Shown here piece after piece: positions 1,378 through 15,539 of a stretch of 15,539 bases of DNA. The notes beneath the pieces are model-generated. The model was not told the DNA's origin and made no database searches. It was given only the letters and a program-made list of their open reading frames with translations. The stretch is from an uncultured Nitrospirales bacterium (lineage in GTDB: Bacteria; UBA10199; JADGCS01). The translations under genes and the position numbers were made by a program. The stretch is from NCBI GenBank assembly GCA_964526915.1, contig CAZGMS010000082.1, positions 1-15,539 of the forward strand, in the 5' to 3' direction. Numbering within the stretch: the first letter of the stretch is position 1; the number at the start of each line of letters is the position of its first letter.

Positions 1378-1380
1378 ATT

Positions 1381-1650: not shown

Positions 1651-1997
1651 TTGGTCTCCTTTGGTCCGTCGGAGCTCAAATGAGCGGAGGCGACCTCTTC
1701 AAAAATATTTTGTTTGTTCGCGATCCCTTTGTCCTCCACAGTCAATTCGTCCACAATCCCTGTGATGGCCGCATCTACCGGCGCGAACGGGTTGGGCAGG
1801 GCCAGTGTGGATTCTTTGGCCAGCGTGTAATAAACAATCTCCTGCGGGCCAGCTTGCACAGTGTCGATGGCGGCAATTGGTCCGCCGTCAGGACGATACT
1901 GTTCATCAAGCGGCTGGATCATCAGTATCTTCAGGTTCTGGATGCCGGGGTCTTTGACAGTGGCAACAACCGTGCCGATGACTTTAGCTAGTTTCAT
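1647..1997 (-). CDS. BMC vertex protein BMC-P (EutN/PduN family), paralog 2, with C-terminal extension
   Basis: MKLAKVIGTVVATVKDP...LKILMIQPLDE is the EutN/PduN signature. 116 aa with an extra C-terminal tail. Confidence 0.85.
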   Translation of the reverse strand: MKLAKVIGTVVATVKDPGIQNLKILMIQPLDEQYRPDGGPIAAIDTVQAGPQEIVYYTLAKESTLALPNPFAPVDAAITGIVDELTVEDKGIANKQNIFEEVASAHLSSDGPKETK

Positions 1998-2099
1998 AAA
2001 AAATAGTCTCTGATTGTTTTAATCTGGGCTTAAGGCTCAAGGCACAAGGTGTAAGGCGTCAAAATCGCCCTATGCCTTACGCCTTTAGCCATGCGCCCT

Positions 2100-2657
2100 T
2101 TACCAATACACTCCCCTTGCCAACATCTCTGGATGCGGTGCCTCGATGATTTCGCACCCAGCCAACATACCCGTGTTTTTGACAAATTCCTTTGCCCGTT
2201 CCATTGAGGCCTGAACATCGCACAATGCGCCCGTGATCATAAAATACCCTTTGCCCCCCAGGCCGTTGGCCAGTCTGACTTCCACGAGTTTGCTGTCGGT
2301 CGCCTTGGCCGCGATATCGGCGGCTTCAACACAGGTTGCGATCGAAAATGTTTCAACAATCCCGAGCGCACCAAAATGATCAATCACATTTGTTCCTGTG
2401 ATGGCAGGGATGAGGTCTGGGTGTGCGTGTGGCAGGAACATGTGGCTTACGATCATGTCATGTCCGATCTCGATCCCTTTTTTTAGGGATTCCTCCACAT
2501 CGGCCACCTCACCGCAAATGAGCACCATGTATTTGCCCGGGCAGATGGCATGGGTTTCGAGAACGCGCACAGGCGCCTTCTTGACCATCTCATCGGTGGT
2601 CTTGAACCCTTTGGCGACAGATTTGAATTCGATCATGGCGAGTGCTGGTTCAATCAT
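2100..2657 (-). CDS. PduT-like tandem-BMC-domain shell protein (BMC-T) with a conserved Fe-S-ligand cysteine
   Basis: 185 aa with two BMC domains. The first carries ICPGKY, matching the PduT Cys38 4Fe-4S ligand motif. The second is canonical (ALGIVETFSIATCVEAADIAAKAT...GKGYFMITG). The size matches PduT (184 aa). Confidence 0.85.
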   Translation of the reverse strand: MIEPALAMIEFKSVAKGFKTTDEMVKKAPVRVLETHAICPGKYMVLICGEVADVEESLKKGIEIGHDMIVSHMFLPHAHPDLIPAITGTNVIDHFGALGIVETFSIATCVEAADIAAKATDSKLVEVRLANGLGGKGYFMITGALCDVQASMERAKEFVKNTGMLAGCEIIEAPHPEMLARGVYW

Positions 2658-2672
2658 AAAGTGTAAAGGCTC

Positions 2673-4016
2673 CTAGCGCTGAGCCTGAATTTCAATGGTC
2701 GTTTCCGAAACGGATTTCACCACACCAGAAATCGAGGCGTGGTAGTTGGTCCCCAAGGCCCCTGCTGGGCAGGGCGCAATCAAATCTCCCAAGCTGACAG
2801 TCTGACCCTGTTTGACAACAGGCAGGGATTTGGCTCCCACATGCCGGTGCAAGGGGACAATCACATCAAAAACATTTTGATAACCCAGATAAGGGGTTTC
2901 TTTTTTGTATTTCAGTAAATCCAGTTTTTTAAGAAGCACATCAATCGCCACCTTGCGGTCTTCATAGGCACTGTTGCAGGTGGTGGGCTTGCTGTTGTGC
3001 GGGTTTTTCACGCCTTTGGCAACGAGTTCCCTGCGGTAAGCGGCATAGATTTTTTTGGGGGAGAGACGCATGACATCGCACGCGACCATCTCGCACATCC
3101 CGCACTGACTGCACAAAAAGGCCGATGTGATGTTTTGCGTGGGTTCAGATAAATTGTAATCGATGGTGCGCATGGTGGCATGCGGGAAAATCGCGTGCCC
3201 CAACAGGTTGCGAGGGCAGAGGTCGGTACAGCGGAAACACTGACAACATGCCGCCTTGGAGAGTTTGATCATTTGCCCTACGCTGAGGGTCTTGGCGCGC
3301 ACTACAAAATGATCGCGTGGCAACACAAGCACACCACTGCAGGTTTTGGCGATGCCGAGAGAAAGGTCATCAACGATATTGCCCATCATGGGACCGCCAT
3401 CAATCACGACAGGGTTATCGGTAGTGATTCTGCCTGCCAGGGCGAGGAGTGTTGTGTAGGGGGTGCCGATGGGGACCTTGACGACGCAGGGTTTTTCGAC
3501 TTCACCGGTAATGGTTACCATTCTCTCGGTGACAGGCTTGCCATTGACGGCGTCGGTCATTTGGTAGAGAGAAAGGACGTTGCTCACGACCACGCCCACG
3601 TTGAGTGGCAGGCCACCTTCGGGGATGATCCGTTTTGTCGCATCATAAACAGTCAAGAACTCATCACCTGCGGGATAATAATTTTGAAGTTTGTGAATAT
3701 GAATATTTTGTTTGGGATCGAGTGCCTTGGTGAGCGCGTTCACCACATCGGTATAGTGCCCTTTGACAGCGATGATTCCCTGTTTGGCGCCGGTGGTCTT
3801 CATGGCCAGGGCAACACCTGTAACCACCTGATCCGCGTGTCTGATCATGAGGGTCTTGTCGGTGTTGAGCAGGGGCTCACATTCGGAACCATTGGCGAGC
3901 ACGGTGTCCACGCTGGCTTTGAGTTTGATGTGCGGGGGGAACCCGCCGCCACCGGCACCCACGATGCCTGCATTAAAGACGGAGTTGATGATATCGTTTG
4001 CTGTCAAATGGTTCAT
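2673..4016 (-). CDS. PduS-like RnfC-family Fe-S flavoprotein (BMC-associated oxidoreductase)
   Basis: Collinear with PduS throughout: GIVGAGGGGFPPHIKL, YPAGDEFLT, GGPMMG, two Cys clusters (CCQCFRCTDLCPRNLLGH and CSQCGMCEMVAC), and a C-terminal GALGTNYHASISGVV. The likely start at 4016 overlaps the AldDH stop by 1 nt (TGATG); the ORF track extends it to 4049. Confidence 0.9.
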   Translation of the reverse strand: MNHLTANDIINSVFNAGIVGAGGGGFPPHIKLKASVDTVLANGSECEPLLNTDKTLMIRHADQVVTGVALAMKTTGAKQGIIAVKGHYTDVVNALTKALDPKQNIHIHKLQNYYPAGDEFLTVYDATKRIIPEGGLPLNVGVVVSNVLSLYQMTDAVNGKPVTERMVTITGEVEKPCVVKVPIGTPYTTLLALAGRITTDNPVVIDGGPMMGNIVDDLSLGIAKTCSGVLVLPRDHFVVRAKTLSVGQMIKLSKAACCQCFRCTDLCPRNLLGHAIFPHATMRTIDYNLSEPTQNITSAFLCSQCGMCEMVACDVMRLSPKKIYAAYRRELVAKGVKNPHNSKPTTCNSAYEDRKVAIDVLLKKLDLLKYKKETPYLGYQNVFDVIVPLHRHVGAKSLPVVKQGQTVSLGDLIAPCPAGALGTNYHASISGVVKSVSETTIEIQAQR

Positions 4017-5470
4017 CAAATAATCCTGAAATACCCCGAGACCACGCACCGCCTGATTTTGGTAAAGTGGCGAGCGGTGGTCACGCCCTCACCTGTGGGT
4101 GAGGCGATCGTAAAGGACGCGGGCCCTTCGCCGTCCATGCCCAATCCGGACAGAGCCATCCCGTTTTTCACAAAAATGGAGGTGCCCATCTTCACGGCCA
4201 TGTTGTGCAGGTTTTCGATATTCTTGGAATGCATGGCCGAGGTGTGGAAGCGTCCCCCCTCGAGCTCGTACGCGCAGTCGATGGCTTGATTCACATTGCC
4301 CACGCGGATGAAAGGCACCACGGGCAGGAGCATTTCGATTTGCGCGAACGGGTGTTTGTGATCGGTTTCGGTGATGGCAAGCCTGATGGCGGGGTCCACA
4401 TCAATCCCAATTTGTTTCAAGATGTGCTGAACGTCTTTGCCCACGAAATCCTTGTTGGGGTGGTCACCGTCCACAATCACTTTTTCGAGTCGTTTGGCGT
4501 GATATGGTGTGAGTTCAAACGCGCCGCTTTTCAGCAGGGCTTTTTTAAACGGATCGGCGGCTTTTTCTGTCACAATGATTTCTTTTTCGATGGCGCAAAT
4601 GATGTTGTTGTCGCAACTCGATGAGGTGATGATGTCGCGGGCGGCTTTGTCGAGATCGGCCGTTTCGTCCACCACAACAGGCGGGTTGCCGGGACCTGCC
4701 GCGACCACACGTTTGCCTGTGCCCATGGCGGCCTTGACCACAGCGGGTCCGCCGGTCACCACCAGAAGTTTAATGTCCTTGTGATTCATGAGCTGGTTGG
4801 CCGAGGCAATGGTGGGGGTCGCGATGGTGGTGAATAAATTGGGGGGGCCGCCTTCACTGATGACGGCCTGGTTCATGAGGTCAATCACAAAGACCGAGAT
4901 TTTTTTGGCTGTGGGGTGCGGGTTGAAAACCACCGTGTTGCCTGCGGCGATCATGCCGATCCCGTTGCAGATGATGGTTTCTGTGGGGTTGGTGCAGGGA
5001 GTGATGGACCCGATCACACCCCAAGGGGCCTTTTCCAAAAGGGTAAACCCGTGATCACCTGTGAAGGTTTGTGGCTCGATGTCTTCAACGCCCGGTGTTT
5101 TGTTGATGGCCAACAGATTTTTTTTGATCTTGTCTTCGACTCTGCCCAGACCGGTTTCTTCACGGGCCATCTTTGAGAGCAGTTCCACATTGGCTTTGCA
5201 GAGGTCCCTGATTTTTTGGATGATGCGTTTGCGTTGTTCGAGTGAGATTTGTTTGAAATCGTCCAGAGCCTTGACGCTGGCCGCGATGGCGTCGTCGATC
5301 GAACCAAAACAGCCACGGGAACCAGTGAACGCGGCGTCTTTTTTGGGTTCCTGTTTGGAGACGGTCGCTGTTGTGTTCGCAGGACGTCCAGCAGGCGGCG
5401 TGTCTTTGACCTGAATTTGAGACACCACCTTATCGACAATGGAACTGATTTGTTCGTCGGAGAATTTCAT
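4016..5470 (-). CDS. CoA-acylating aldehyde dehydrogenase (PduP/EutE family) with N-terminal encapsulation peptide
   Basis: 484 aa. The N-terminus MKFSDEQISSIVDKVVSQI is an encapsulation-peptide helix followed by a linker. ALDH fold with catalytic Cys region SSSCDNNIICAIEKE and the PduP-like GPGNPP motif. Confidence 0.9.
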   Translation of the reverse strand: MKFSDEQISSIVDKVVSQIQVKDTPPAGRPANTTATVSKQEPKKDAAFTGSRGCFGSIDDAIAASVKALDDFKQISLEQRKRIIQKIRDLCKANVELLSKMAREETGLGRVEDKIKKNLLAINKTPGVEDIEPQTFTGDHGFTLLEKAPWGVIGSITPCTNPTETIICNGIGMIAAGNTVVFNPHPTAKKISVFVIDLMNQAVISEGGPPNLFTTIATPTIASANQLMNHKDIKLLVVTGGPAVVKAAMGTGKRVVAAGPGNPPVVVDETADLDKAARDIITSSSCDNNIICAIEKEIIVTEKAADPFKKALLKSGAFELTPYHAKRLEKVIVDGDHPNKDFVGKDVQHILKQIGIDVDPAIRLAITETDHKHPFAQIEMLLPVVPFIRVGNVNQAIDCAYELEGGRFHTSAMHSKNIENLHNMAVKMGTSIFVKNGMALSGLGMDGEGPASFTIASPTGEGVTTARHFTKIRRCVVSGYFRII

Positions 5471-5477
5471 AGGTCAG

Positions 5478-5682
5478 CGTGAATCGTGAATCGTGGATTG
5501 TGGATCGTAAAATGGTTTGTCATCCCAGCGGAAGCTGGGATCCAGAACTGTTGACAGTAGGGATTTCTGCTTTGGTTCGACTTTGCTCACCACCCTGAGC
5601 GCCTGTCGAAGGGTCGCAGGAATGACATACCTACTCAACAATTCGCATTTCGATCCACGATCGACGACCCACAACCCACGAT
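5478..5682. repeat. MITE-like element copy A: heptad-repeat terminal inverted repeats flanking hairpin 1 plus an expanded hairpin 2
   Basis: Left end (CGTGAAT)2-CGTGGAT-TGTGGAT-CGT, then AAAATGG + GTCATCCCAGCGGAAGCTGGGATCCAGAACTGTTGACAG ... CGCAGGAATGAC...CAACAATTCGCATTTCGA. Right end TCCACGA-TCGACGA-CCCACAA-CCCACGA. It fills the whole gap between the BMC-P stop (5684) and the AldDH start (5470). Confidence 0.75.
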
Positions 5683-5683
5683 A

Positions 5684-5977
5684 TTACGGATTCTTCACAT
5701 ACCTTTTGTCGCCATCGATTTCCAAAATATCGACAATGGCCATGATGACGGCATCGACCGGTTTGTTTTCGGTTGCTTGTGTCATTCTGGCCGAGGAGCC
5801 GCTGGCGACCAAGACAACTTCGCCAACACCCGCACCGACAGAATCCGCGGCCACCACAAAACTGCCAGTGGGTTTGCCATCGGTGTCGACATATTTGACC
5901 AGTTGCAACCTGAGGCCCTCAAGTTTTTCGTCCTTGCGGGTGGCCACAACGGTTCCTACAATTTTGCCTAGTTGCAT
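5684..5977 (-). CDS. BMC vertex protein BMC-P (EutN/PduN family), paralog 3
   Basis: True start [27 protein letters not shown] at 5977. The track ORF is artificially extended into the repeat. Canonical EutN/CcmL signature. Confidence 0.85.
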
Positions 5978-5984
5978 AAAACAG

Positions 5985-6187
5985 CGTGGTTCGTGGATCG
6001 TGGGTCGTGGATCGTGGATCGAAAAATGGCTTGTCATCCCAGCGAAAGCTGGGATCCAGAACTGTTGACAATAGTCATTCCTGCTTTCGCAGGAATGACT
6101 ATCCGCTCAACAATTCGCATTTTGACCCACTATTCACGACCCACTATCCACGATTCACGACTCACGATCCACGATCCACGACCCACG
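5985..6187. repeat. MITE-like element copy B (most complete copy): 5 heptads, hairpin 1, hairpin 2, 9 heptads
   Basis: CGTGGTT-CGTGGAT-CGTGGGT-CGTGGAT-CGTGGAT, then AAAAATGGCTTGTCATCCCAGCGAAAGCTGGGATCCAGAACTGTTGACAATAGTCATTCCTGCTTTCGCAGGAATGACTATCCGCTCAACAATTCGCATTTTGA, then nine copies of NYCACGA. It sits between the BMC-H stop (6193) and the BMC-P start (5977). Confidence 0.8.
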
Positions 6188-6192
6188 AAAAA

Positions 6193-6489
6193 TTACTTTG
6201 CCACTTTTTTGACATTGCGACCCAAAGGCAAAGCCACATCGATATTCTCGTGTGGTCTGGGGATGACGTGAACGGAAACGAGTTCGCCAACCTTTTCGGC
6301 TGTTCTGGCGCCGGCTTCGGTCGCGGCTTTCACGGCGGCCACATCACCTCTGACAATCGCGGTCACAAAACCACCACCAATTTTTTCGTAACCAACAAGT
6401 TCAACCTTGGCGGCTTTCACCATGGCGTCACTGGCCTCGACCATTGCGACAAAACCTTTGGTTTCGATCATTCCTAATGCGTCTGCCAT
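6193..6489 (-). CDS. BMC hexamer shell protein BMC-H (PduA/EutM/CcmK family)
   Basis: True start [60 protein letters not shown] at 6489 with AAGGAG RBS. The track ORF is over-extended upstream. First gene of the operon. Confidence 0.95.
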
Positions 6490-6600
6490 ATCAATCTCCT
6501 TTATTAACGATTTAGAGGCCCCCTTATTACTATTACAATAGGGAACCAAGTTTGGTCGGCATAGACTTTTTTTTTGGGGACTGTCAATAGTTAATGATAT
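6490..6600 (-). promoter_or_regulatory. Candidate sigma70-type promoter and structured leader of the BMC operon
   Basis: On the minus strand: TTGACA (plus 6583-6588), an 18-nt spacer, TATGCC (plus 6558-6563), and a ~60-nt leader containing a CCCT...AGGG inverted repeat with a TATTAC direct repeat just before the RBS. It lies in an AT-rich, >400-bp non-coding region. Confidence 0.3.
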
Positions 6601-6717
6601 TATCGTTAAAGAAAACCACATTCAAAATCATTTTATAATAACACGAGATATTTAGTGATATATGATGCTATTTAATGGTTGATGATTAGTGCCAATTGTG
6701 ATAATCAGTTTCTAGAT

Positions 6718-6912
6718 TGCGGATTGTGGCTCGTCATTGAGAGGGTGAACTGCGTTGGAATTGCCAAAAGGCAATTTTAATACTGTGCCCCAAGGGATAC
6801 CGGGGTAATCCAGAAATGATACTGTGGATTGCTTCGATTCGCTTTGTGAATCTCGCAATGACCAGCTGTTTGTACTTTTAGACGATTCACGAACATCGAT
6901 CCACGATCCACT
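6718..6912. repeat. Degenerate copy (E) of the heptad-TIR element
   Basis: Left end GCGGATTGTGGCTCGT matches copy A CGTGGATTGTGGATCGT at about 14 of 17 positions. The internal CCCCAAGGGATACCGGGGTAATCCAGAAATGA is homologous to hairpin 1 + ATCCAGAACTGTTGA. Right end CGATTCACGAACATCGATCCACGATCCAC. Confidence 0.4.
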
Positions 6913-6918
6913 CTTCTC

Positions 6919-7104
6919 ATGCAATATTCCGAAGTCATGACAACCAACGAGGCCATGAAGTACCTCAAAATCACCCGCAAGACCCTGCTCAAATTGGTCA
7001 AAACGGGTGAGCTCAAGGGCGCCAAGGTGGGCAAGGATTATCGCTACCTCAAAAGCGAGATCGACAAGTTTCTCAAAGGGGAAAAAGAGGAACGGCTGTT
7101 TTGA
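6919..7104 (+). CDS. Excisionase-family helix-turn-helix DNA-binding protein (alternative start at 6937)
   Basis: MTTNEAMKYLKITRKTLLKLVKTGELKGAKVGKDYRYLKSEIDKFL is the excisionase/MerR-type HTH pattern. It begins right after a heptad TIR, and its stop TGA lies in a GAATCGT heptad remnant. No clear RBS. Confidence 0.6.
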   Translation: MQYSEVMTTNEAMKYLKITRKTLLKLVKTGELKGAKVGKDYRYLKSEIDKFLKGEKEERLF

Positions 7105-7113
7105 ATCGTATCT

Positions 7114-7179
7114 TGTCATCCCTGCGAAGGCAGGGATCCAGTTTCTGTCATCCCTGCGTGGTCCCTGCCTTCGCAGGGA
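7114..7179. repeat. Hairpin 1 (GTCATCCCTGCGAAGGCAGGGATCCAG) followed by a second fused hairpin (GTCATCCCTGCG-TGGT-CCCTGCCTTCGCAGGG)
   Basis: Same hairpin 1 as the MITE core but with compensatory changes in the stem (CAGC/GCTG becomes CTGC/GCAG). It sits immediately upstream of the GIY-YIG gene. Confidence 0.6.
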
Positions 7180-7199
7180 GGGAACCAGAGCATAGATTT

Positions 7200-7487
7200 A
7201 TGAAGACATACTATGTGTATATTCTTGCCAGCAAAAAAAATGGCACATTGTATGTCGGTGTTACGAGCAATTTGTCCAAAAGAATATTTGAGCACAAACA
7301 AGACCTGGTGGATGGGTTCACAAAAAAATATGGGGTTCATTCTTTGGTTTATATTGAACAAACAAATGATGTGAACGACGCATTGCTTAGAGAAAGAAGA
7401 TTGAAGGCTTGGAAGAGGCAATGGAAAATAGATCTGATTGAAAAATCGAACCCGAATTGGAACGATTTGTATGAAGATTTGTTTTAG
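7200..7487 (+). CDS. Small GIY-YIG nuclease family protein (~95 aa, COG2827-like)
   Basis: True start MKTYYVYILASKKNGTLYVGVTSNLSKRIFEHKQ (GIY...YVG motif with downstream R and E). The track ORF is over-extended upstream through the hairpins. Confidence 0.85.
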   Translation: MKTYYVYILASKKNGTLYVGVTSNLSKRIFEHKQDLVDGFTKKYGVHSLVYIEQTNDVNDALLRERRLKAWKRQWKIDLIEKSNPNWNDLYEDLF

Positions 7488-7494
7488 GAAACAT

Positions 7495-7520
7495 GGATTC
7501 CTGCTTTCGCAGGAATGACA
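7495..7520. repeat. Hairpin 2 (GGATTCCTGCTTTCGCAGGAATGACA), the MITE core second hairpin, immediately downstream of the GIY-YIG gene
   Basis: Near-identical to GTCATTCCTGCTTTCGCAGGAATGAC in copy B. The following GCTATAAATTCGG resembles the MITE GCTCAACAATTCGCA. Confidence 0.6.
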
Positions 7521-7537
7521 AAGCTTTGAGCTTTGAG

Positions 7538-7768
7538 CTATAAATTCGGACACGTCCCGCCACTACAACAACTCCCTGCCTCTGAACACGATTTGGCAGA
7601 GGGACAGGTGGCGTTTGATTTCGAGATCATCCTGCTTGGCACACTGATGAGTTTTTCCAAATCAAGGGACTCGCATTTTGGACAGGCGATGGTATTCTGA
7701 CGCGTCGTGGAGACAATCAATTCAAAAACAGCGTCACATTTTTTGCATTTGTATTCGAATAAGGGCAT
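7538..7768 (-). CDS. FmdB-family zinc-ribbon protein
   Basis: True start MPLFEYKCKKCDAVFELIV...IACPKCES (CxxC...CPxC FmdB pattern) with a Cys/Gly/Ser-rich tail. The track ORF is extended through the upstream tandem repeat. Confidence 0.75.
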   Translation of the reverse strand: MPLFEYKCKKCDAVFELIVSTTRQNTIACPKCESLDLEKLISVPSRMISKSNATCPSAKSCSEAGSCCSGGTCPNL

Positions 7769-7779
7769 GCGTCCCAATA

Positions 7780-7813
7780 CAATTGGCAATGGGCAATTGG
7801 CAATGGGCAATTG
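7780..7813. repeat. Tandem 14-mer CAATTGGCAATGGG x2.4, i.e. three palindromic CAATTG hexamers at 14-bp spacing
   Basis: Seen directly. It lies between the stop of the 889-aa gene (7837) and the start of the FmdB gene (7768). Confidence 0.7.
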
Positions 7814-7836
7814 TATGGAGCAACATCAGGGCGTTG

Positions 7837-10506
7837 TTATGCGGCTGTTCTGGGGAGCCTGTTCTCGTCCATGATTCTTTGATGGGCCAGTCTTTGCAGG
7901 TATGTTCGGATGATGGGATATTTCTCCATCATGTCCTTCAGATCGGCCTCGCTAAAACGAAGGACGGTGACATGGCCTTGCGCACTGACATTTGCCTTGC
8001 GTGCCTGATGGTTGATGGAGGCCATTTCGCCGACTACCGTTCCGGGACCAACTGTGATTCTACGGTCATGGGGCGCATATGACCAGATCTCCGCTAGGCC
8101 ATCCACAATCAGAAAGGCGTCTTTGTTGGTGTGATCGCCCTCGGCGATAAATCGATTGCCCGCGAACATGGTTTCTTCGCTGGCAATCATGAGCAAGGCG
8201 GTGAGGATGGCGTCCGAAATATCAGGCAGGGCCTGTTTGAGCAGGCGATAGTATTTTTTTCGGAGTTCTCTAACGTGTCGCAGCGTCTCAGTGTGCTGAC
8301 CAAGTACCTCGGTCAGCGTTTTGGCAGAAAAAGTCAAAACCTGTGAGGGCATGGAGGCCACAGCACTGGCGTTACGAGGTTCACCAAAGAGTGCTCCCTC
8401 ACCGATGATCCCAAAGGGCACATGGGTGAGTTCCGAACCGTCAGCGTAAAGTCTGAATCCGCCCGAGACAATCATTCTGACAGAGGTGTCTGTTGCGTCG
8501 CTTCCTGCTGTTGCCTCATCTTGAAGCATCAACACCGCTCCTATGTCAAACGTGGCGAGTGTGGTGGCCGCGGCCAAAGCCTGCTTTTGCTCGGTGGACA
8601 GGCCCGCCAAAAGGGGTGACCATTCAATGAAGCGCAAATTTCTCTCTTGTATGCTGTCTTCTGTTTCGGGCTGTTTGGGAAAATGATTGGCCAGCGAAAT
8701 AAATCCCTGATGACCCGCCAATAGTTTGGGGACACCCACCTGGGCCGCTCTGCCGTCACTCACGTGATAGAATTTGACCCGATTCAACACCTCATGCAGT
8801 TCGACTCCTTTTTTTTCTGCAAAAGTCTTGAGCCACGCCAGGGTGACTTCGGGATCGGTATGCAGACCCTTCATGCCAGCCTCAATCAAAATCATGGGAG
8901 GGTTGGGCTGATCCCAGGTGCTTTCCAAAAGATGTTGGTAACGCAGAATTTCGGCCTTGCGTGCCGGGTGCATATCAGGAAACAGCCGATCCAGTTCGGC
9001 AGAATCAGCCAAAGTATCTCCACTGATGTAGAGCGCGAGTTGGCCCCCTGTGTCCGCAGGCGCTGTCCAGACTTCAATGGCCTCGGCGGCCACAGAATGA
9101 CAGGTGTAGTGGGTTCTGAGCCACATGCCCCGGACCGCAACGAACTGTCGAGGTTTGAGTTCCACAAAATTCAATTGAGTCAAACCCTCGGGTTTGCCAT
9201 TAACGGCGATGCTTAGGGTGTATGCATCCTGACAAATATTGTACAAGGTTTTTGTTCCGTACCAATTGAGTTTTGGGCACAGGAACATGAGTTCTATACT
9301 GGCAGGAGTGAAATGATCGGTGTGATCATGTGTGATGGCGATGCCCTCCACCGCGTTCAAGGGAATCCCGTTTTGTATGAGATAAGCAACCGTCTGTGCC
9401 GGGGGGTCGATCAGCGTAACCTTGCCATCCTTCCAAAGCATGAACCCGCTGGTGCCCTCGCCCGAAAAATAATCCGCTGTGCTGATGGGCCAAAGACCTG
9501 CTTCGCCGTCTATCAAGACCCGTTTGCGGATTTCCTGAAACTTGGGATCGAACATGGTTCTGGGATCAACATCGAGATTTTCCACGGGCGGGGCGAATTC
9601 CGGTTTGCCCAGATCGATAGTGCGTAGCAAATGCCCGCGATCATAAATTTCGTACGCCATGGGTCCTTTTTCCTGAGCCTGTTTGACGACAACGCTACCA
9701 TCCCCGATCGTGATTTCGTCGTTCTCAAAATGGGTGACTCTGGAAAAGTCCTCGGATGCCTTGTTGGCGAAACGCTGTGTTTCAGTGCCCAAATCGGGAA
9801 TGCCCTCTTCATTGGAAGCATGTTCGTCTCGTACACTGTCGGTCAGTTTTTGTGGGTTGCGTCCCTGAAAGGCCTCTTTCAAAAAGGCACTGACTTTCCC
9901 TGCGTCACCCGGGGTTGGCAAATAAAAATTAAACCCAGCTTGTTGCAAGAGCGGCCAAAAGTAGGGATAACGGGTAAAGTCTACCGCGTGATAACCCGTT
10001 GTAAATGTCGTGTAACCTTTGACAGGCACATAGTGCAGGGGCATGTAATGACCGAGTTTATCAGAGGGTGTTTTGCCGGGTTGTCCGCCGTTTTTAAAGA
10101 ACATCTGAATGGCATCGAGGTGCGATCCCATGGGGAGCCCCAACTGTACCCAACCTTGAGACGTGTAAACGGCAACGCCACCGCGCCTCATTTTTTGCAC
10201 ATAACCGTATGGTTTGCCAATGGGGCCTGTGTTATCGGAACCGCCTGTTCCACCCGGGCGATCAGTGGATTGTGGGGCGTCCGAGCTTGGTGTTGCAGGT
10301 GCGGCAAGCCTTTGCGCTGCAGGTTTTCTTGTTTGCCTTCCCGTCAAATGTGCAGTTTGGGCCGTTGCACCAGCAAAGGCGGCATAACGACTCGCCAAGC
10401 TTTGTGTTGCCTTACCGCGAGTTGGATTGCCTGTGGAAAGGATGAAAACGTTTGGTGCGACGGGTTGTGCGAGTGGGGCTCTTAAGGCGGTGGTTGCTGT
10501 GTTCAT
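7837..10506 (-). CDS. Large multidomain protein: disordered Ala/Thr/Pro-rich N-terminus, an unknown domain, a metallo-beta-lactamase-fold hydrolase domain, and two C-terminal cyclic-nucleotide-binding (CAP-like) domains
   Basis: 889-aa ORF with GGAGG RBS 5 nt upstream of ATG 10506. MBL motifs ITHDHTDHF (HxHxDH), later THYTCHS, YISGDT and FYHVSDG. The cNMP-binding signatures FGIIGEGALFGEPRNASAVA and VGPGTVVGEMASINHQARKANVSA are each followed by coiled-coil-like helices. Confidence 0.8.
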   Translation of the reverse strand: MNTATTALRAPLAQPVAPNVFILSTGNPTRGKATQSLASRYAAFAGATAQTAHLTGRQTRKPAAQRLAAPATPSSDAPQSTDRPGGTGGSDNTGPIGKPYGYVQKMRRGGVAVYTSQGWVQLGLPMGSHLDAIQMFFKNGGQPGKTPSDKLGHYMPLHYVPVKGYTTFTTGYHAVDFTRYPYFWPLLQQAGFNFYLPTPGDAGKVSAFLKEAFQGRNPQKLTDSVRDEHASNEEGIPDLGTETQRFANKASEDFSRVTHFENDEITIGDGSVVVKQAQEKGPMAYEIYDRGHLLRTIDLGKPEFAPPVENLDVDPRTMFDPKFQEIRKRVLIDGEAGLWPISTADYFSGEGTSGFMLWKDGKVTLIDPPAQTVAYLIQNGIPLNAVEGIAITHDHTDHFTPASIELMFLCPKLNWYGTKTLYNICQDAYTLSIAVNGKPEGLTQLNFVELKPRQFVAVRGMWLRTHYTCHSVAAEAIEVWTAPADTGGQLALYISGDTLADSAELDRLFPDMHPARKAEILRYQHLLESTWDQPNPPMILIEAGMKGLHTDPEVTLAWLKTFAEKKGVELHEVLNRVKFYHVSDGRAAQVGVPKLLAGHQGFISLANHFPKQPETEDSIQERNLRFIEWSPLLAGLSTEQKQALAAATTLATFDIGAVLMLQDEATAGSDATDTSVRMIVSGGFRLYADGSELTHVPFGIIGEGALFGEPRNASAVASMPSQVLTFSAKTLTEVLGQHTETLRHVRELRKKYYRLLKQALPDISDAILTALLMIASEETMFAGNRFIAEGDHTNKDAFLIVDGLAEIWSYAPHDRRITVGPGTVVGEMASINHQARKANVSAQGHVTVLRFSEADLKDMMEKYPIIRTYLQRLAHQRIMDENRLPRTAA

Positions 10507-10790
10507 GCTGTCCTCCCCATTTTATGTGATGATACCAGCCGCATAGTGCTTTTGGTGTCTGGTGTCAAAATTTTCTTGTAGACAGGGGGCATGCGTCAGG
10601 AAATGGTGTCATGTCATCACGAGTAGGTCGCCGCAGGCGGACGACGTGGTGATCTCCATATTGTTTCTTGTGGATCGCCACGCTTCGCCATGAGCCTGTA
10701 AATGGCTCATGGCTCCGCTCGCGATGACGGTGACTTATCACTAATTCATTTTCATTGAACAAGGCCAGGTTTTCTGTTTTATGGCTGGGC

Positions 10791-12086
10791 ATGGATGTCC
10801 TTTTTTTGTCCCGCCTGCAATTTGCCGTGGCCACCCTGTTTCATTTTATCTTTGTCCCACTGACTTTGGGCCTCTCGATCATTGTGGCGATTTTCGAAAC
10901 ACGCTATGCCAGAACTGGTGACGAGCTTTATCTCAAGCTCACCAAATTCTGGGGCAAACTTTTTCTCATCAATTTTGCCTTGGGGGTGGTGACGGGAATC
11001 ACACTGGAGTTTCAGTTTGGGACCAACTGGTCCCGTTATTCGGCCTTTGTGGGCGATATCTTTGGATCACTGTTGGCCATCGAGGCCACGGTCGCGTTTT
11101 TTTTGGAATCCACACTCGTGGGGGTGTGGATTTTTGGCTGGCAAAAACTCTCGCCCAAAAAGCACGCGCTCATCATGTGGCTCATTGCTGTGGCGGGCAC
11201 GCTCTCGGCGGTGTGGATCATTCTGGCCAATGGGTGGATGCAGAATCCAGTGGGTTACGTGATCAAAAATGGACGGGCAGAGCTGGCAAGTTTTAGTGCC
11301 GTGTTTTTTAACAAGTACGCGTGGCTGGAGTTTTTTCACACCATGAGTGCGTCGTATTTATACAGCGCCTTTTTTGTGATGGGAGTGAGCGCGTATCATC
11401 TCATTAAAAAACAACATGTCGATTTTTTCACACGTTCTTTCAAATTGGCCCTCTGGTTTGGTCTGGTGTGTTCGGTTTTGGTGGCCTTTAGCGGTGACCT
11501 GAACGGCGTGAACGTGGCCAAAGTCCAACCTGCCAAACTCGCCGCCATGGAATCACACTGGCAAACGAGCGCCAACGCGCCCATGAAGCTTCTGGTTTGG
11601 CCCGATGAAGAGGCCGGTAAAAATGCATTTGAAGCCTTTTCGGTGCCGTCGGGATTGAGTTTGCTGGCGTTTCACGATCCTCATGCCACAGTGAAAGGGT
11701 TGCGCGATTTTGCCCAGGAGGATCGTCCACCTGTGCTCATCACCTTTGTGGCGTTCAGGGTCATGGTGGCCATTGGGGGCTTGCTGATTCTGCTTTGCGT
11801 GATCGGGGTTTTCAAACGCAACCGCCTGACCGGGTCCAAATGGTATTTGAGGGCCATGTTGTTTACCTTGCCTCTGCCTCTTGTGGCGATTGAACTCGGC
11901 TGGGTGGTGACTGAGGTGGGGCGGCAACCCTGGATTGTGTATGGGCTGATGCGCACGAGCGATGCGGTCTCGCCGGTCGTGACCTCGCAGGTGTTGACCT
12001 CGCTCATTTTCTTTTTTCTGGTTTATGGACTCTTGGGCGCTGTGGGGGTGTTGTTGATGGCAAGACACGTGAATCGTGGTTCGTGA
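10791..12086 (+). CDS. cydA: Cytochrome bd-type quinol oxidase subunit I (CydA), short Q-loop type
   Basis: MDVLFLSRLQFAVATLFHFIFVPLTLGLS...KFWGKLFLINFALGVVTGITLEFQFGTNWS...GRQPW aligns with E. coli CydA. At ~431 aa it lacks the long Q-loop insertion. The track ORF begins at an upstream in-frame TTG; ATG 10791 matches the family N-terminus. The last 5 codons and the stop lie inside the MITE. Confidence 0.93.
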   Translation: MDVLFLSRLQFAVATLFHFIFVPLTLGLSIIVAIFETRYARTGDELYLKLTKFWGKLFLINFALGVVTGITLEFQFGTNWSRYSAFVGDIFGSLLAIEATVAFFLESTLVGVWIFGWQKLSPKKHALIMWLIAVAGTLSAVWIILANGWMQNPVGYVIKNGRAELASFSAVFFNKYAWLEFFHTMSASYLYSAFFVMGVSAYHLIKKQHVDFFTRSFKLALWFGLVCSVLVAFSGDLNGVNVAKVQPAKLAAMESHWQTSANAPMKLLVWPDEEAGKNAFEAFSVPSGLSLLAFHDPHATVKGLRDFAQEDRPPVLITFVAFRVMVAIGGLLILLCVIGVFKRNRLTGSKWYLRAMLFTLPLPLVAIELGWVVTEVGRQPWIVYGLMRTSDAVSPVVTSQVLTSLIFFFLVYGLLGAVGVLLMARHVNRGS

Positions 12087-12217
12087 ATCGTTGTTCGTGG
12101 GGTGCTCTGTCATTCCAGCCTGTCAGCCATAGGACTGATCCCGCTCTGCGTGCGCTGGGATGACAAAACACATTTCGATTCACGATTCACGATCCACGAT
12201 CCACGATCTGCGAGAAT
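12068..12217. repeat. MITE-like element copy C between cydA and cydB (heptad TIRs plus a variant long hairpin)
   Basis: CGTGAAT-CGTGGTT-CGTGAAT-CGTTGTT-CGTGGGG, then GTCATTCCAGC-(34 nt)-GCTGGGATGAC, then AAAACACATTTCGA + TTCACGA-TTCACGA-TCCACGA-TCCACGA-TCTGCGA. Confidence 0.7.
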
Positions 12218-12219
12218 TT

Positions 12220-13248
12220 ATGTTTTTACAATCAATCTGGTTTTTTATTTGGGGGCTTTTATGGGCCATCTTTTTTGCGACCGATGGTTTTGATTTTGGC
12301 GTGGGCACGCTCTACCCTTTTTTGGGCAAGACAGAGCATGACAAGCGCGTGATGATCAATGCCATTGGGCCTTTGTGGGATGGCAATGAGGTGTGGCTCA
12401 TCACCGCAGGTGGGGTGACGTTTGCAGCCTTTCCTCAGGTTTACGCCGTGATGTTCTCAACGCTGTACACCCCTCTCATGATCATCTTGTTTGCGCTCAT
12501 CCTGCGCGGTGTGGCGTTTGAGTTCAGGGGCAAAGTGGATTGTCCCCGGTGGCTCAAAATTTGGGACGCAGCAATTTTTATTGGGAGTGTTTTGCCCGCT
12601 TTGTTATTTGGTGTGGCGTTTGGCAATATTTTTATGGGCATTCCGTTTGATGCTCAGGGCCTGAATCATGGCGGGTTACTCGATCTGATCAACCCGTATG
12701 GTTTACTCACGGGCTTGTTGTTTTTGCTGTTGTTCATCCAGCATGGGGCCTTGTGGCTGGCGGTGCGGTCAGGCTCTGCCCTGCATGACCGGGTCGTCAC
12801 TGTTGTGCGCACCAACTGGTTTGTTTTGCTGATAGTGGCGGTTTTGTTTTTTGTGGCCACGTATTTTGTTACGGATTTGTACGACAATTATATTGCACAG
12901 CCAGTTTTGTGGGTTATTCCTGGCCTGGTAGTTCTTTCGTTATTTGGTGTGCGTTTATTTTTGCGGCAAAAAAAATATTTATGGGCGTGGGTCGCTTCGG
13001 CGGTCACAATTGTGGGGGCCACATTTTTTGGCATCACGGGGCTTTTTCCCCGACTTTTTCCATCAAGCATAGACTCTCAATTTGATCTGACGGCGTTCAA
13101 TGCCTCGTCATCGCAGGACACACTTACCATTATGCTGGTGGTGGTGGCTGTCTTTATCCCCATAGTGATTGCATACCAAGTCTGGGCGTACCGGCTTTTT
13201 TCGCATAAAATTGACCACGACAATTTTGAGCGGGTTGTGGTGTATTGA
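12220..13248 (+). CDS. cydB: Cytochrome bd-type quinol oxidase subunit II (CydB)
   Basis: True start MFLQSIWFFIWGLLWAIFFATDGFDFGVG (DGFDxGVG CydB signature). Polytopic membrane protein. The track ORF is over-extended upstream through the repeat. Confidence 0.9.
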   Translation: MFLQSIWFFIWGLLWAIFFATDGFDFGVGTLYPFLGKTEHDKRVMINAIGPLWDGNEVWLITAGGVTFAAFPQVYAVMFSTLYTPLMIILFALILRGVAFEFRGKVDCPRWLKIWDAAIFIGSVLPALLFGVAFGNIFMGIPFDAQGLNHGGLLDLINPYGLLTGLLFLLLFIQHGALWLAVRSGSALHDRVVTVVRTNWFVLLIVAVLFFVATYFVTDLYDNYIAQPVLWVIPGLVVLSLFGVRLFLRQKKYLWAWVASAVTIVGATFFGITGLFPRLFPSSIDSQFDLTAFNASSSQDTLTIMLVVVAVFIPIVIAYQVWAYRLFSHKIDHDNFERVVVY

Positions 13249-13287
13249 AAAGGCGTAAGGCGCAGGCCTCAAGGTGCAAGGTTCATT

Positions 13288-14622
13288 TCAAATCAGCTTG
13301 TCCCAACAACCAATTGCGTAGAGAGGAATGTGGTAGAGGGTGTAACCGTTGCGTTGCACAATCGAATAGGGGGCCAATGAAACGATCACAGCCTTGGCAT
13401 TATTGAAACGGCTATGATAAATGTCCAGAGCCTTGTATTGGTGTGTGTTGGGCTTGAGGGCCGCTTTGCATTCTAGTGGAATGATTTCGAAGGGCGTTTT
13501 GACCACAAAATCGATTTCAAAATTTTTATCCTTAAACCCGCAAACGTTGGGATGGTCGTCTAGCAGTTCGCTACACAGCATTTGTTCAATCAATCCGCCC
13601 AAAGGCTCTCGCAAGTTGGCATCCAGCGTTTCCAATGCCGAAATTCTCGGCAAGCCGGTTTCTCGCAGATGTTTTGCCAGCCCCACATCAAACAAAAATC
13701 GTTTGGGATAAAAGCTGTGTGTGCTTTCTGGATGGTGTGTTTTTTGTTCAATCTTGTGAATGAGCCTCCAGCCTTCAAGGACAGATAAAATGTTATCGGC
13801 AAGGCGGTTGTTATTTTTGATCAGGGCTGTTTTTTTATAAGAGCCACCCAGTGTGTTGGCCACACTGTTGATGGCGCGGTAGAACAAATTGGCATATTCT
13901 TCAGAAAAGAATTTCAAAAAATCTTCTTTGATGGATTCGAGGTAAGCAGAAAAATCTTGTGTGAGATTGCTGTTGCCGGCTGTGGTCAGATAATTGGTGC
14001 AGATTTGCGGTAGGCCGCCGCAAAGAAGATATTGATCGAGCAAGATGAGGAGTGTGGTGTGGTCGTTGGCAGAAAGCCCGATGAGGTTATTTGGATTGTT
14101 TATGATTTCTTGTAATCCATATTTGGTGTGAGGATTTTTTATCTGTTCGTTTGCACGTATAAACTCTGCGTAGGAAAAGGGGTGCACGGTCATTTGAGTG
14201 TAGCGACCAACAGGAATGCGAATTTCCGGATTTCTGAAAAGGCGGTTCATCATGGATCCACTGAGAATGACTGTTTGATGTGGCCAGTCTTCCTTCATTT
14301 GCCGCACGTAGCGCCCCAATAGATATGATTCGTTGGCTTCATCTATGAAAAGAACGGTGTCTTGCGAAGCGACAAAGTTGGTTTCTCTTTTGAGGACCTG
14401 TTCAAATTCATTAAATGATGCCGTCTTGTCGATTTGAGCGCAAAGAATTTTGTTGGTCTCGAGGTTGATTTCTATGTATGTTTTTTTTGATCGTTCCAAT
14501 GCCAAACGAACAGCCGTTGTCTTGCCTACTTGTCGTACACCATTGATGATAAGAACATTTTTATTTAATTCATCCAATGATATATAATTATTGATGTTAT
14601 TTGACAGGTCTCTGAAAATCAT
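13288..14622 (-). CDS. AAA+ superfamily ATPase with C-terminal DUF4143-like domain (COG1373 family)
   Basis: Walker A GVRQVGKTT near the N-terminus, Walker B-like VLFIDEAN, and a C-terminal FEIDFVVKTPFEIIPLECKA nuclease-like (PD-ExK-type) segment. The gene is markedly AT-rich compared with its neighbours. Confidence 0.8.
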   Translation of the reverse strand: MIFRDLSNNINNYISLDELNKNVLIINGVRQVGKTTAVRLALERSKKTYIEINLETNKILCAQIDKTASFNEFEQVLKRETNFVASQDTVLFIDEANESYLLGRYVRQMKEDWPHQTVILSGSMMNRLFRNPEIRIPVGRYTQMTVHPFSYAEFIRANEQIKNPHTKYGLQEIINNPNNLIGLSANDHTTLLILLDQYLLCGGLPQICTNYLTTAGNSNLTQDFSAYLESIKEDFLKFFSEEYANLFYRAINSVANTLGGSYKKTALIKNNNRLADNILSVLEGWRLIHKIEQKTHHPESTHSFYPKRFLFDVGLAKHLRETGLPRISALETLDANLREPLGGLIEQMLCSELLDDHPNVCGFKDKNFEIDFVVKTPFEIIPLECKAALKPNTHQYKALDIYHSRFNNAKAVIVSLAPYSIVQRNGYTLYHIPLYAIGCWDKLI

Positions 14623-14629
14623 GGTTTAT

Positions 14630-14830
14630 GATACGTAATTATGACCATAATTGCAACAAAAATGTTCTAAGAATGACCATATTTAGAACACGAAGGTAAT
14701 TTTCTGATAATGCTGGGCAATGTGTTTCAGGGCGTCCAATAATTAGGACATTTGTCTCATAATTATGACACTTGTCTTAGTACTGGGACAGTCTCTGGGA
14801 CAGGTACTGGGACTGGTCCTTCAAAAACAT
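14630..14830. promoter_or_regulatory. Operator-like palindromes and direct repeats upstream of the ATPase gene
   Basis: Perfect IR AATTATG-AC-CATAATT (about 14635-14650). IR GTTCTAA-N12-TTAGAAC. Two direct repeats ATAATTAKGACAYTTGTCT each containing GACA-NN-TGTC. Three copies of TACTGGGAC. Confidence 0.3.
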
Positions 14831-15085
14831 CCTAACCCATTATAATCACACAAAATATTATTTTATGGTATTGGCACAGGGATTGCAGTCCGTAAGACGA
14901 GTACGTGCCCATTTTGTTACAGTACTGGCGTGTTTACGAGGGGAATAAAACAGGCATGAAAACTGGCGGGGCAACTCACAAAAAGAGCGTGGCTTGTGGC
15001 TTAGCGGTTATTGCACCGCGTCAACAAATATTATGCGAATGAACAAGCAGTCTTGTTTTCTATGATTTATGCGACTAGGGAGAAG

Positions 15086-15141
15086 CGTGGATCGTGAATC
15101 GTGAATCGCGGATCGTGAATCGTGGATCGTGGATCGTGGGG
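15086..15141. repeat. Heptad-repeat inverted repeat, left arm (8 x CGTGGAT/CGTGAAT) flanking the four-helix-bundle gene
   Basis: CGTGGAT-CGTGAAT-CGTGAAT-CGCGGAT-CGTGAAT-CGTGGAT-CGTGGAT-CGTGGGG, read directly. Confidence 0.75.
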
Positions 15142-15148
15142 AAGTGAG

Positions 15149-15511
15149 ATGAAAATTCAATCGTATAAAGATTTGGAAGTTTGGAAGACAGGGCTCGAGA
15201 TTGTAAAACTTGTTTACAGTGTGACCAAAAAATTCTCAAAGAGTGAGTCGTTTGGCCTGACGTCCCAAACGCAGAGAGCGGCAGTATCAATACCAACAAA
15301 TATTGCCGAAGGATTTGCGCGACGATACACAAAAGAGTTTACTCGATTTTGCTATATCGCGTTGGGTTCATGTTCAGAATTAGAAACTTTGGTGATCATT
15401 GCGAAGGAACAAACACATTTAACGGGAGATGATTTTAAGAAGTTGACAGAATTGTTGGATCACGAAAGTCGAATGTTAATGAGCCTAACCAAAAAACTGG
15501 TTAACCATTGA
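15149..15511 (+). CDS. Four-helix-bundle protein of the 23S rRNA intervening-sequence family (TIGR02436-like)
   Basis: MKIQSYKDLEVWKTGLEIVKLVY...QRAAVSIPTNIAEGFARRYTKEF...ALGSCSELETL matches the conserved pattern of IVS-encoded four-helix-bundle proteins. Confidence 0.8.
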   Translation: MKIQSYKDLEVWKTGLEIVKLVYSVTKKFSKSESFGLTSQTQRAAVSIPTNIAEGFARRYTKEFTRFCYIALGSCSELETLVIIAKEQTHLTGDDFKKLTELLDHESRMLMSLTKKLVNH

Positions 15512-15539
15512 CATCGATCCACGATCCACGATCCACGAT
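15512..15539. repeat. Heptad-repeat inverted repeat, right arm (CATCGAT-CCACGAT x3), truncated by the window end
   Basis: Reverse complement of the left-arm heptads. It begins 1 nt after the stop codon. Confidence 0.7.

Follow-up and report, generated by a model that had tools for sequence, protein, structure and literature searches.

The 15,539-nucleotide stretch at positions 1-15,539 of contig CAZGMS010000082.1 (forward strand) of an uncultured Nitrospirales bacterium (assembly GCA_964526915.1), analysed here over its whole length and called the window, carries five hairpin elements whose arms are built of tandem 7-nt units, and one of these elements encloses a gene for a 23S-rRNA-intervening-sequence protein (IVP, also S23p). 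An earlier note on this DNA had described tandem CGTGGAT/CGTGAAT units and their reverse complements at six loci, and had read them as copies of an undescribed MITE-like family (miniature inverted-repeat transposable elements). Indeed, TRF at period 7 returned CGTGGAT/CGTGAAT arrays at positions 5478-5508, 5985-6021, 12068-12100 and 15086-15139 and complementary arrays at 5651-5682, 6127-6188, 6882-6911, 12176-12208 and 15515-15539, each with 3.6-8.9 copies of the unit, and a repeat search joined (CGTGRAT)n and (ATYCACG)n into five inverted pairs with a complementarity of up to 91%. In each of the five elements, a 5′ arm of 4-9 CGTGRAT units is followed by an interior that varies and then by a 3′ arm complementary to the first. 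The first two array pairs bound element A (5478-5682) and element B (5985-6188), and the pair at 12068-12100 and 12176-12208 bounds element D (12068-12208), all three without an assigned strand. Element C (6712-6911, likewise unassigned) is degenerate, with a clear 3′ arm at 6882-6911 and a weak 5′ arm at about 6712-6735. Element E (15086-15539, plus strand) has a 5′ arm of 7.7 units and a 3′ arm that runs from 15515 to 15539 and beyond, being cut by the end of the window. The arrays reported earlier are therefore real, but the elements number five, since 15086-15141 and 15512-15539, formerly counted separately, belong together as the 5′ and 3′ arms of a single element with an open reading frame (ORF).

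Elements A to D are ORF-less, whereas element E is the complete form of the heptamer-armed element. Its arms enclose an intact ORF of 120 codons (15149-15511, plus strand) that matches the IVP family in both PF05635 (E = 4.2e-36) and TIGR02436 (E = 4.6e-33). The closest solved structure is that of XCC0516 of Xanthomonas campestris (PDB 2gsc, E = 3.9e-22), which comprises five chains, and a solved IVP homologue is cited as a homopentamer (Lin 2006, cited in PMC4990558). The translated ORF keeps 25 of the 25 invariant columns of an alignment with homologues and in addition gives a weak match to PF22296 (Avd, a nucleic-acid-binding protein of diversity-generating retroelements). From these matches the product is predicted to be a small four-helix-bundle protein and not a transposase.

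RNA folding supported the hairpin architecture of the ORF-less copies. The predicted folding energies were -115.7 kcal/mol for element B (z = -11.7 against shuffled sequences), -90.7 kcal/mol for element A (z = -6.4) and -71.3 kcal/mol for element D (z = -6.1), and no shuffle was as stable in any of the three. Element C folded weakly (z = -3.4), and its interior, which includes a GTCATTGCGAG-type hairpin, is unlike those of the other copies. No RNA family of Rfam matched at any window element, no intrinsic terminator was predicted at the elements within 5300-7700, a range that covers A to C, and no match to rRNA was found in the window, the flanks of the elements being protein-coding genes.

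We surveyed 80 metagenomic loci that had been fetched by IVP homology alone, 65 of which extend at least 150 nt on both sides of the gene. A tandem array of period 7, 8, 14 or 16 lay within 200 nt of the IVP ORF in 63 of these 65 loci, and on both sides in 38. Arrays occurred at 4.5 per kb near the IVP ORF versus 1.1 per kb elsewhere in the loci, and their periods were 7 (85 arrays), 8 (28), 14 (16) and 9 (1), with none of period 6. Moreover, the two flanks are complementary to each other: at 53 of the 65 loci their pairing surpasses 95% of controls made from mismatched loci, and the paired stretch has a median of 32 nt. In every case the 5′ arm was poor in C (9% C, 35% G), with the opposite composition in the 3′ arm. 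Cassettes measure 420-640 nt, start 0-18 nt past the stop codon of the upstream gene and carry the IVP gene in the orientation of that gene in 25 of 33 cases. Two further IVP genes were predicted from array pairs elsewhere in the loci, and both were found (L131 and L139). These data indicate that IVP genes in general sit between inverted arrays of 7- to 8-nt units, and they suggest that the outer heptamer hairpins of the window are the arms of IVP-gene cassettes.

The units themselves vary from one IVP locus to the next and include TTAGGGA, TAGGCAT, TGGGTGA, GGGGACT, ATGGTTG and 8-mers such as AAGGCACA, among others. At orthologous sites the arms can be similar, as in L144 and L147 or in L122 and L123, or wholly different even in period, as in L134 and L137. 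One rival reading is that protein and array form a cognate pair, in which an IVP pentamer would bind its own heptamer arrays as single-stranded DNA or RNA, one unit per subunit, and so drive the spread, maintenance or regulation of the element, with the ORF-less hairpins as dispersed targets, much as in the RAYT-REP and Ssn-NTS systems. Several observations fit: arrays are nearly universal around IVP genes, they typically hold 4-5 units (medians 4.4 and 4.2) and the solved homologue is a homopentamer, their near-exclusive period of 7-8 nt suggests a molecular ruler, and the IVP is homologous, if weakly by the PF22296 match, to the nucleic-acid-binding Avd. Two cassettes that lie 0.8 kb apart in L131 (174-685 and 1450-1876) also differ in unit (GGGTCTG versus TTAGGGA) and encode proteins only 57% identical. 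However, protein similarity follows unit similarity only weakly (rho = -0.116; 8 of 999 permutations), proteins that share 53-55% identity with the window IVP have different units, whereas those built with its unit show 39-49%, and in Coxiella the protein is probably not made (PMC4990558). As the primary explanation we consider such a cognate pair unlikely. A recognition code between the sequence of the IVP and that of its unit was likewise considered and set aside, the correlation being weak.

The association extends from metagenomes to cultured organisms. If IVP genes lie between inverted heptamer arms, the XCC0516-type genes of Xanthomonas were predicted to be flanked by the GGGAATC repeats known from that genus, and this is what we then found. 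In both X. campestris and Xanthomonas citri, the XCC0516-type gene sits between accB and accC; the array GGGAATCGGGAGTGGAGAATCGGGAATCGG begins 8 nt past the accB stop codon, and a complementary C-rich array abuts the ATG of accC. IVP genes were also present on 35 plasmids, mostly of Nostocales, and in none of 50,697 phage records. On a plasmid of Nostoc edaphicum the IVP gene stands between two ribonucleotide-reductase (nrd) genes and is flanked by (GGGAGTA/GGGGAGT)8 and (TCCCTAC)5. A copy on a PCC 7120 plasmid has arrays that do not match, and a Calothrix copy has no arrays.

The CGTGRAT unit of the window was followed by an exact scan for CGTGRATCGTGRATCGTGRATCGTG in a 596-Gb genome collection with one genome per species. 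This 25-mer pattern occurred at at least 117 loci in more than 15 phyla, against about 0.01 expected by chance across the collection by our own estimate. The matches listed come from Acidobacteriota (many of them Pyrinomonadaceae), Planctomycetota, Bacteroidota, Gemmatimonadota, Verrucomicrobiota, Nitrospirota and several proteobacterial classes, and further from Deinococcus, Chloroflexota, the candidate phyla radiation (CPR), Omnitrophota, Synergistota and others. Because several genomes in the same list hold two or three distant loci, for example three on one Roseateles chromosome, the family is dispersed, and the earlier claim of a multi-copy family as opposed to a local duplication was borne out: the same unit recurs in many unrelated genomes. 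An inverted pair was recognized in 45-48 of the at least 117 loci, mostly with a loop of 2-140 nt. In four loci (L081, L082, L090 and L110, from Thermoanaerobaculia, Gemmatimonadaceae, Desulfosoma and Kiritimatiellota, four phyla other than that of the window), an IVP homologue of 39-49% identity lies exactly between the inverted arrays. Among the matches listed, all wide-spaced pairs contain an IVP gene except one in L093, which spans 840 nt, has an arm of 2 units and is doubtful, and no gene other than an IVP gene was seen between such arms, either in the window or in ten or more other loci.

Among the matches listed, the order (CGTGRAT)n to (ATYCACG)n outnumbered the opposite order by 39 to 4, which bears on another explanation of the arrays, namely that they are functionless heptamer simple sequence repeats (SSRs) generated by polymerase slippage, or kept for G-quadruplex formation, and intergenic by chance. 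Of the long SSRs in prokaryotes, heptamers show the strongest over-representation, and slippage has been proposed for them (PMC4679880, PMC4692102), and unit number does differ between copies and strains. Slippage cannot, however, create a complementary array opposite an existing one or impose a fixed polarity, nor does it account for a 25-mer pattern in more than 15 phyla; CGTGRAT lacks a G-run and so permits no G-quadruplex, yet it behaves like GGGAATC. With inverted pairing, polarity and the IVP association all opposed to it, this explanation is largely refuted and we give it almost no credence.

The earlier reading as a MITE, that is, a non-autonomous DNA transposon whose ends are recognized by a transposase encoded elsewhere in the genome, fared only a little better. 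The elements are small and multi-copy with inverted termini, ORF-less copies do stand beside an ORF-bearing one, A and B are nearly identical composite copies, and the presence of the family in many phyla suggests horizontal spread. Against this, the check for target-site duplications that the earlier note had proposed found none flanking A, B and D in the window and none flanking 27 relatives, 30 or more copies in all, and no transposase domain was detected in the window ORFs or next to related cassettes, the IVP gene being the only recurrent ORF. Moreover, the arms among the matches listed range from 2 to 16 units and are unequal between the two sides of one element, and Rehm et al. saw no association of the GGGAATC arrays with insertion-sequence elements (PMC4692102). 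The absence of both target-site duplications and a transposase from the loci covered indicates that the elements are not MITEs of the transposase type, and the classical MITE explanation is very improbable.

The ORF-less hairpins fill stop-to-start or stop-to-stop gaps between genes, and in the window the fit is tight. Elements A and B lie within a minus-strand microcompartment operon (475-6492) that encodes a DeoC aldolase, three EutN proteins, BMC-T, an RnfC-like protein, an aldehyde dehydrogenase and BMC-H. Element A fills the gap between a EutN stop codon and the start of the aldehyde dehydrogenase gene, beginning 3 nt past the former and ending 7 nt ahead of the ATG of the latter, and element B fills that between BMC-H and EutN, 5 nt from the BMC-H stop codon and 5 nt from the EutN ATG. 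Element C ends 7 nt ahead of the ATG (6919) of an HTH_17 gene. Element D lies between cydA and cydB (cydAB, 10755-13248); the cydA stop codon (12084-12086) falls inside the third unit of its 5′ arm, and its 3′ end is 12 nt ahead of the probable cydB ATG (12220). The relatives behave alike. Among the matches listed, 30 ORF-less CGTGRAT hairpins could be classified, of which 17 have co-directional ORFs as neighbours and 13 convergent ones, with no hairpin in a divergent gap. Their upstream stop codon falls 1-10 nt ahead of the arm or within its first units, and the downstream ATG 3-12 nt past the 3′ arm, usually without a Shine-Dalgarno sequence.

Such placement could reflect a regulatory hairpin selected by the host, comparable to REP/BIME or STRR sequences, that stabilizes mRNA, sets expression ratios within operons or couples translation from stop to start codon, with the IVP gene as an occasional passenger. 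This would agree with the tight fit between stop and start codons, with the lack of divergent sites among the classified relatives and with the finding that none of the four window genes directly downstream of an element has a Shine-Dalgarno sequence versus 7 of 11 other genes. It would also agree with the conservation of array positions between Xanthomonas species (PMC4692102) and at the orthologous sites of L144 and L147, as well as with the roles in transcript stability or translational coupling suggested in the literature (PMC2670836). On the other hand, the closest relative of the window keeps the operon without the element at the orthologous junctions, the loop content is highly variable and takes in other selfish repeats, and Rehm et al. 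saw no regulatory effect (PMC4692102). Host selection would also leave unexplained why IVP genes nearly always lie inside such arms, and we consider it improbable as the primary explanation. Arms selected to supply stop codons in all frames were a further candidate. A CGTGAAT array does give stop codons in all three frames, and across cassettes the count was 33 of 52 versus 27.4 expected (p ~0.03); the excess is marginal and occurs in the other arm too, and we did not rely on it.

The nearest relatives of the window operon, L198 and L199 (84% and 73% identity of the aldehyde dehydrogenase), carry the same operon with unalignable spacers that contain other heptamer runs, and since these spacers cannot be aligned, neither precise borders nor target-site duplications can be derived from them. 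The runs are AAGGCNN before the aldehyde dehydrogenase gene and GTTTYCC beside the HTH_17 gene (L198, 5952-5980 and 4850-4880; L199, 5890-5915), and L198 has an (ACGGAAA)-like run before HTH_17 where the window has element C. The occurrence of other heptamers at or near the same junctions suggests either rapid turnover of the unit or repeated colonization.

Knowledge of heptamer repeats goes back to 1990 for cyanobacteria and to 2015 for Xanthomonas, and inverted heptamer pairs are not new as such. STRR sequences are 7-bp repeats that form hairpins between hupS and hupL, for which stabilization of the transcript or translational coupling has been proposed (PMC2670836), and an STRR insertion in an RNase P RNA gene is on record. 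In X. campestris, Rehm et al. (2015) described 186 GGGAATC arrays, with 70 convergent pairs among them and 89% of the arrays intergenic, at a mean distance of 28 nt from the neighbouring ORF and rarely between divergent genes (PMC4692102). They saw neither a link to mobile elements nor a role in regulation, stressed G-quadruplex formation and described GGGGAYT repeats in Nostoc beside the GGGNATC repeats of Xanthomonas (PMC4692102). The window elements resemble these classes in their tandem 7-nt units, which when read as GTGAATC are one base from GGGAATC, in their intergenic position near ORF ends, in convergent pairs able to form stem-loops, in their rarity between divergent genes and in occurring inside operons, as the published repeats do at pecE/pecF and hupS/hupL. 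They differ in that the unit is not identical to STRR1-3, GGGAATC or GGGGAYT, in that some copies also hold nested Ssn-type hairpins, and in that the stressed G-quadruplex property is inapplicable; as CGTGRAT has no G-run, the G-quadruplex idea is not general for the class. The publication on GGGAATC makes no mention of IVP or S23p, whereas the S23p gene of X. campestris is found here between GGGAATC arms.

The earlier claim of an undescribed family thus holds in part. The window heptamer strings themselves were not found in the literature searched, but inverted heptamer pairs are published in the form of GGGAATC and STRR, and the core hairpins of the elements match the NTS/dRS3 type, as set out below; a match to named families is what the earlier note had itself named as evidence against its reading, and it applies to part of the element. 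CGTGRAT adds a new unit to a class of repeats already known, and its elements are interlaced with hairpins that belong to the Ssn system, likewise known. Further classes compare as follows. The TAACTGA direct repeats that MacGregor (2015) described in Beggiatoaceae, cyanobacteria and Bacteroidetes, with a suggestion of horizontal spread (PMC4679880), share intergenic arrays that run right up to start codons lacking a ribosome-binding site, extend over upstream stop codons and supply stops in all three frames; they differ in being nearly all direct arrays, with one inverted case in 170 and no reported link to IVP. REP/BIME sequences with their RAYT proteins and Correia MITEs are similarly small, multi-copy, palindromic and extragenic and occur after gene ends and within operons, but the window elements have arms of variable units, no target-site duplication and no RAYT or other transposase among the window ORFs, and are unlike the REP consensus in sequence.

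A second body of literature concerns the protein. The intervening sequence (IVS) in the 23S rRNA gene of Coxiella contains an S23p ORF and a 28-bp terminal stem that is cut by RNase III, with 2-3 tandem heptamers (GACAGAT) in its 5′ part whose number varies between strains (PMC4990558). That RNase III excises the IVS is known for Coxiella, Salmonella and Leptospira (PMC4990558). IVP genes have also been reported from cas operons, where one example lies between cmr3 and cmr2, and from rRNA insertions of CPR bacteria, and were called uncharacterised. Like the IVS of Leptospira and Coxiella, element E places an S23p-family ORF in the loop of a long terminal-repeat stem; tandem heptamers are present in the Coxiella IVS, and its ORF is co-oriented with the host transcript, as in most of the cassettes surveyed here. 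In contrast, the window elements lie in mRNA operon junctions and intergenic DNA rather than in an rRNA helix, RNase III cleavage is shown for rRNA IVS only, and ORF-less dispersed derivatives with the same arms have not been described for IVS.

Taking both bodies of evidence together, we think it reasonably probable that the heptamer elements belong to the class of intergenic heptamer repeats represented by STRR and GGGAATC and are built like the IVS of rRNA, and they would most likely work through an RNA stem. The element would be transcribed within the host transcript, and its two arms would then pair into a stem of 30-60 bp, by which the insert is shut off and its flanks meet again. Because the stem closes off the insert, an rRNA helix or an operon junction could tolerate the element. 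By analogy with the Coxiella IVS, the stem would be a likely substrate of RNase III. The ORF-less copies may be reduced derivatives of the cassettes, for which the window itself offers short inner-junction similarities between elements D and E. At two ORF-less loci (L023, 2280-2459; L076, 1-200, Deinococcus), the 5′ arm has 12-13 perfect CGTGGAT units and the 3′ arm is short and decayed, and directly inward of the 5′ arm the sequence (GGAGATGTGAAATTA) is similar to that of the window IVP ORF in its start region (GGGGAAGTGAGATGAAAATT) and could be the remnant of a deleted ORF.

A number of observations weigh against this reading. Element C sits in a divergent gap, unlike the 30 classified relatives, and about 60% of the at least 117 CGTGRAT loci have no clear partner arm, although some of these, consisting of long solitary arrays, may be unrelated simple repeats. 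No arrays are visible at one plasmid-borne IVP gene (L207). Of the 80 metagenomic cassettes, none seems to lie in rRNA and they share no rRNA-like flanks, so that the rRNA analogy rests on the literature. Two strand comparisons gave no sign of selection at the RNA level: wobble-compatible mismatches showed no bias to the ORF-sense strand (63 versus 78, p = 0.24), and sense and antisense folds were equally stable (33 versus 32). No pair of filled and empty sites was recovered, the nearest relative (84% aldehyde dehydrogenase identity) being too diverged, and we therefore infer mobility, and the origin of the ORF-less copies by deletion, from the comparisons given above.

A broader proposal goes beyond an RNA stem of IVS type. 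Inverted arrays of 7- or 8-nt units would be the defining arms of IVP/S23p cassettes in general; STRR, GGGAATC, the window arrays and the Coxiella heptamers would be ORF-less members or target sites of one system, and the pentameric IVP would be its cognate nucleic-acid-binding partner in the style of RAYT-REP or Ssn-NTS. We advance this tentatively, as a possibility somewhat short of even. The near-universal association of heptamer-type arms with IVP genes seems to be new, as no paper linking heptamer repeats with IVP or S23p was found in the open-access text searched. Two old puzzles may be one: that of the heptamer repeats and that of the IVP/S23p family, which is large, has a solved structure and occurs in rRNA IVS and cas operons. 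Should IVP cassettes have the arrays as their arms, repeats and protein alike would become open to experiment in cultured organisms such as Nostoc or X. campestris with its accB-XCC0516-accC locus. Operons, for their part, may tolerate long stems, or put them to use, precisely where one gene's stop codon gives way to the next start codon. The finding is real and wider than a local curiosity, while its framing as an undescribed MITE needs to change.

The interiors of the window elements tell a different story from their arms. The loop content of CGTGRAT hairpins among the matches listed is highly variable and accepts other selfish repeats, while Pyrinomonadaceae share a uniform minimal form of about 70 nt. 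In three of the four ORF-less window copies, the loop has been colonized by a second, unrelated family of NTS/dRS3-like hairpins. In Neisseria the NTS repeat, whose consensus is CGTCATTCCCGCGMAVGCGGGAATCYRG, includes dRS3 (ATTCCC-N8-GGGAAT). NTS is cut, only as single-stranded DNA, by the GIY-YIG nuclease SsnA, which is small and has a single domain, and ssn genes across bacteria are typically bordered by NTS/SRM hairpins (PMC11893778). The window contains this layout outside the heptamer elements: a single-domain GIY-YIG ORF of 95 aa (7200-7487, plus strand; PF01541, E = 1.1e-14) lies between an NTS/SRM-like hairpin at 7114-7141 (plus strand), which has no heptamers nearby, and an inverted one at 7493-7520 (minus strand). 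We scored the window hairpins against the 28 positions of the Neisseria NTS consensus. The upstream hairpin has 5 mismatches, 4 of which form two compensatory pairs in our own alignment, and the downstream one has 4. In the loop of element A the hairpin at 5518-5545 (plus strand) has 6 mismatches, and in the loop of element B a hairpin pair at 6032-6100, strand unassigned, consists of 6032-6059 with 5 mismatches and a palindromic copy at 6073-6100 with 7. The hairpins starting at 5518, 6032, 7114 and 7493 thus differ from the Neisseria consensus at 4-6 of 28 positions, with several compensatory changes in our alignment, and they keep the GTCAT lead and the C-R-G tail. The resemblance to dRS3 that the earlier note had wished to see checked is therefore present.

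Positions 6077-6099 of element B are identical to 7497-7519 at 23 of 23 positions, and the interior of element B has the same layout as the NTS pair around the GIY-YIG gene, minus the gene. By these likenesses the interior hairpins can be assigned to the Ssn/NTS system, and the GIY-YIG ORF probably encodes an Ssn-family nuclease of single-stranded DNA. The likeness is limited to the interior hairpins and does not extend to the heptamer arms. Since the core hairpins also occur at 7114-7141 and 7493-7520 without heptamers, they form a family separate from the arms, and the single shared architecture formerly assumed for all copies dissolves into two nested families. Elements A and B, 89% identical over 96 nt, are the sole two copies with the full core. 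A small hairpin repeat of a third kind, the CACCCTGAGCG...GTCGAAGGGT type (5577-5614, strand unassigned), is an insert of about 40 nt that splits the second hairpin of element A and is absent from B. The supposed single architecture is in this sense a nest of two or three families of repeats. The interior of element D has a single related hairpin only, an NTS-like stem of GTCATTCCAGC and GCTGGGATGAC with a 34-nt loop, nested at 12109-12164 (strand unassigned). Beside the GIY-YIG gene lies a second, partly overlapping hairpin at 7147-7185.

The arrays also affect annotation. They yield spurious ORFs or false N-terminal extensions at 12160-12219, 5972-6271, 5986-6477 and 5517-6068, and peptides such as IHDPRSTIHD are translated repeats. 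The 362-aa 'cydB' ORF begins at 12160 inside element D, and its Pfam match to CydB starts only from residue 23. Beside IVP genes, such arrays can in addition mimic CRISPR-like repeats.

Other short repeats were noted in the same region. A second, different heptamer array, (CAATKGG)n, lies at 7780-7813 just upstream of a Zn-ribbon gene, where TRF found it at periods 7 and 14 with 100% matches at period 14, and in L198 a (GCAATNN)n hairpin (about 4588-4625) closely follows the Zn-ribbon gene on its downstream side. A heptamer run, (AGCTTTG)x2.6, directly follows the downstream NTS-like hairpin of the GIY-YIG gene at 7522-7539. The HTH_17/excisionase-family ORF behind element C (61 aa, 6919-7104) is kept beside the microcompartment operon in the window, L198 and L199, and gives weak matches to MamR and MADS1. 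Upstream of the IVP cassette, an AT-rich gap at 14739-14817 holds the direct repeats (ATAATTAGGACACTTGTCTC)x2 and (GTACTGGGACAG)x3, which may be operator-like sites for the divergent AAA_14/DUF4143 gene.

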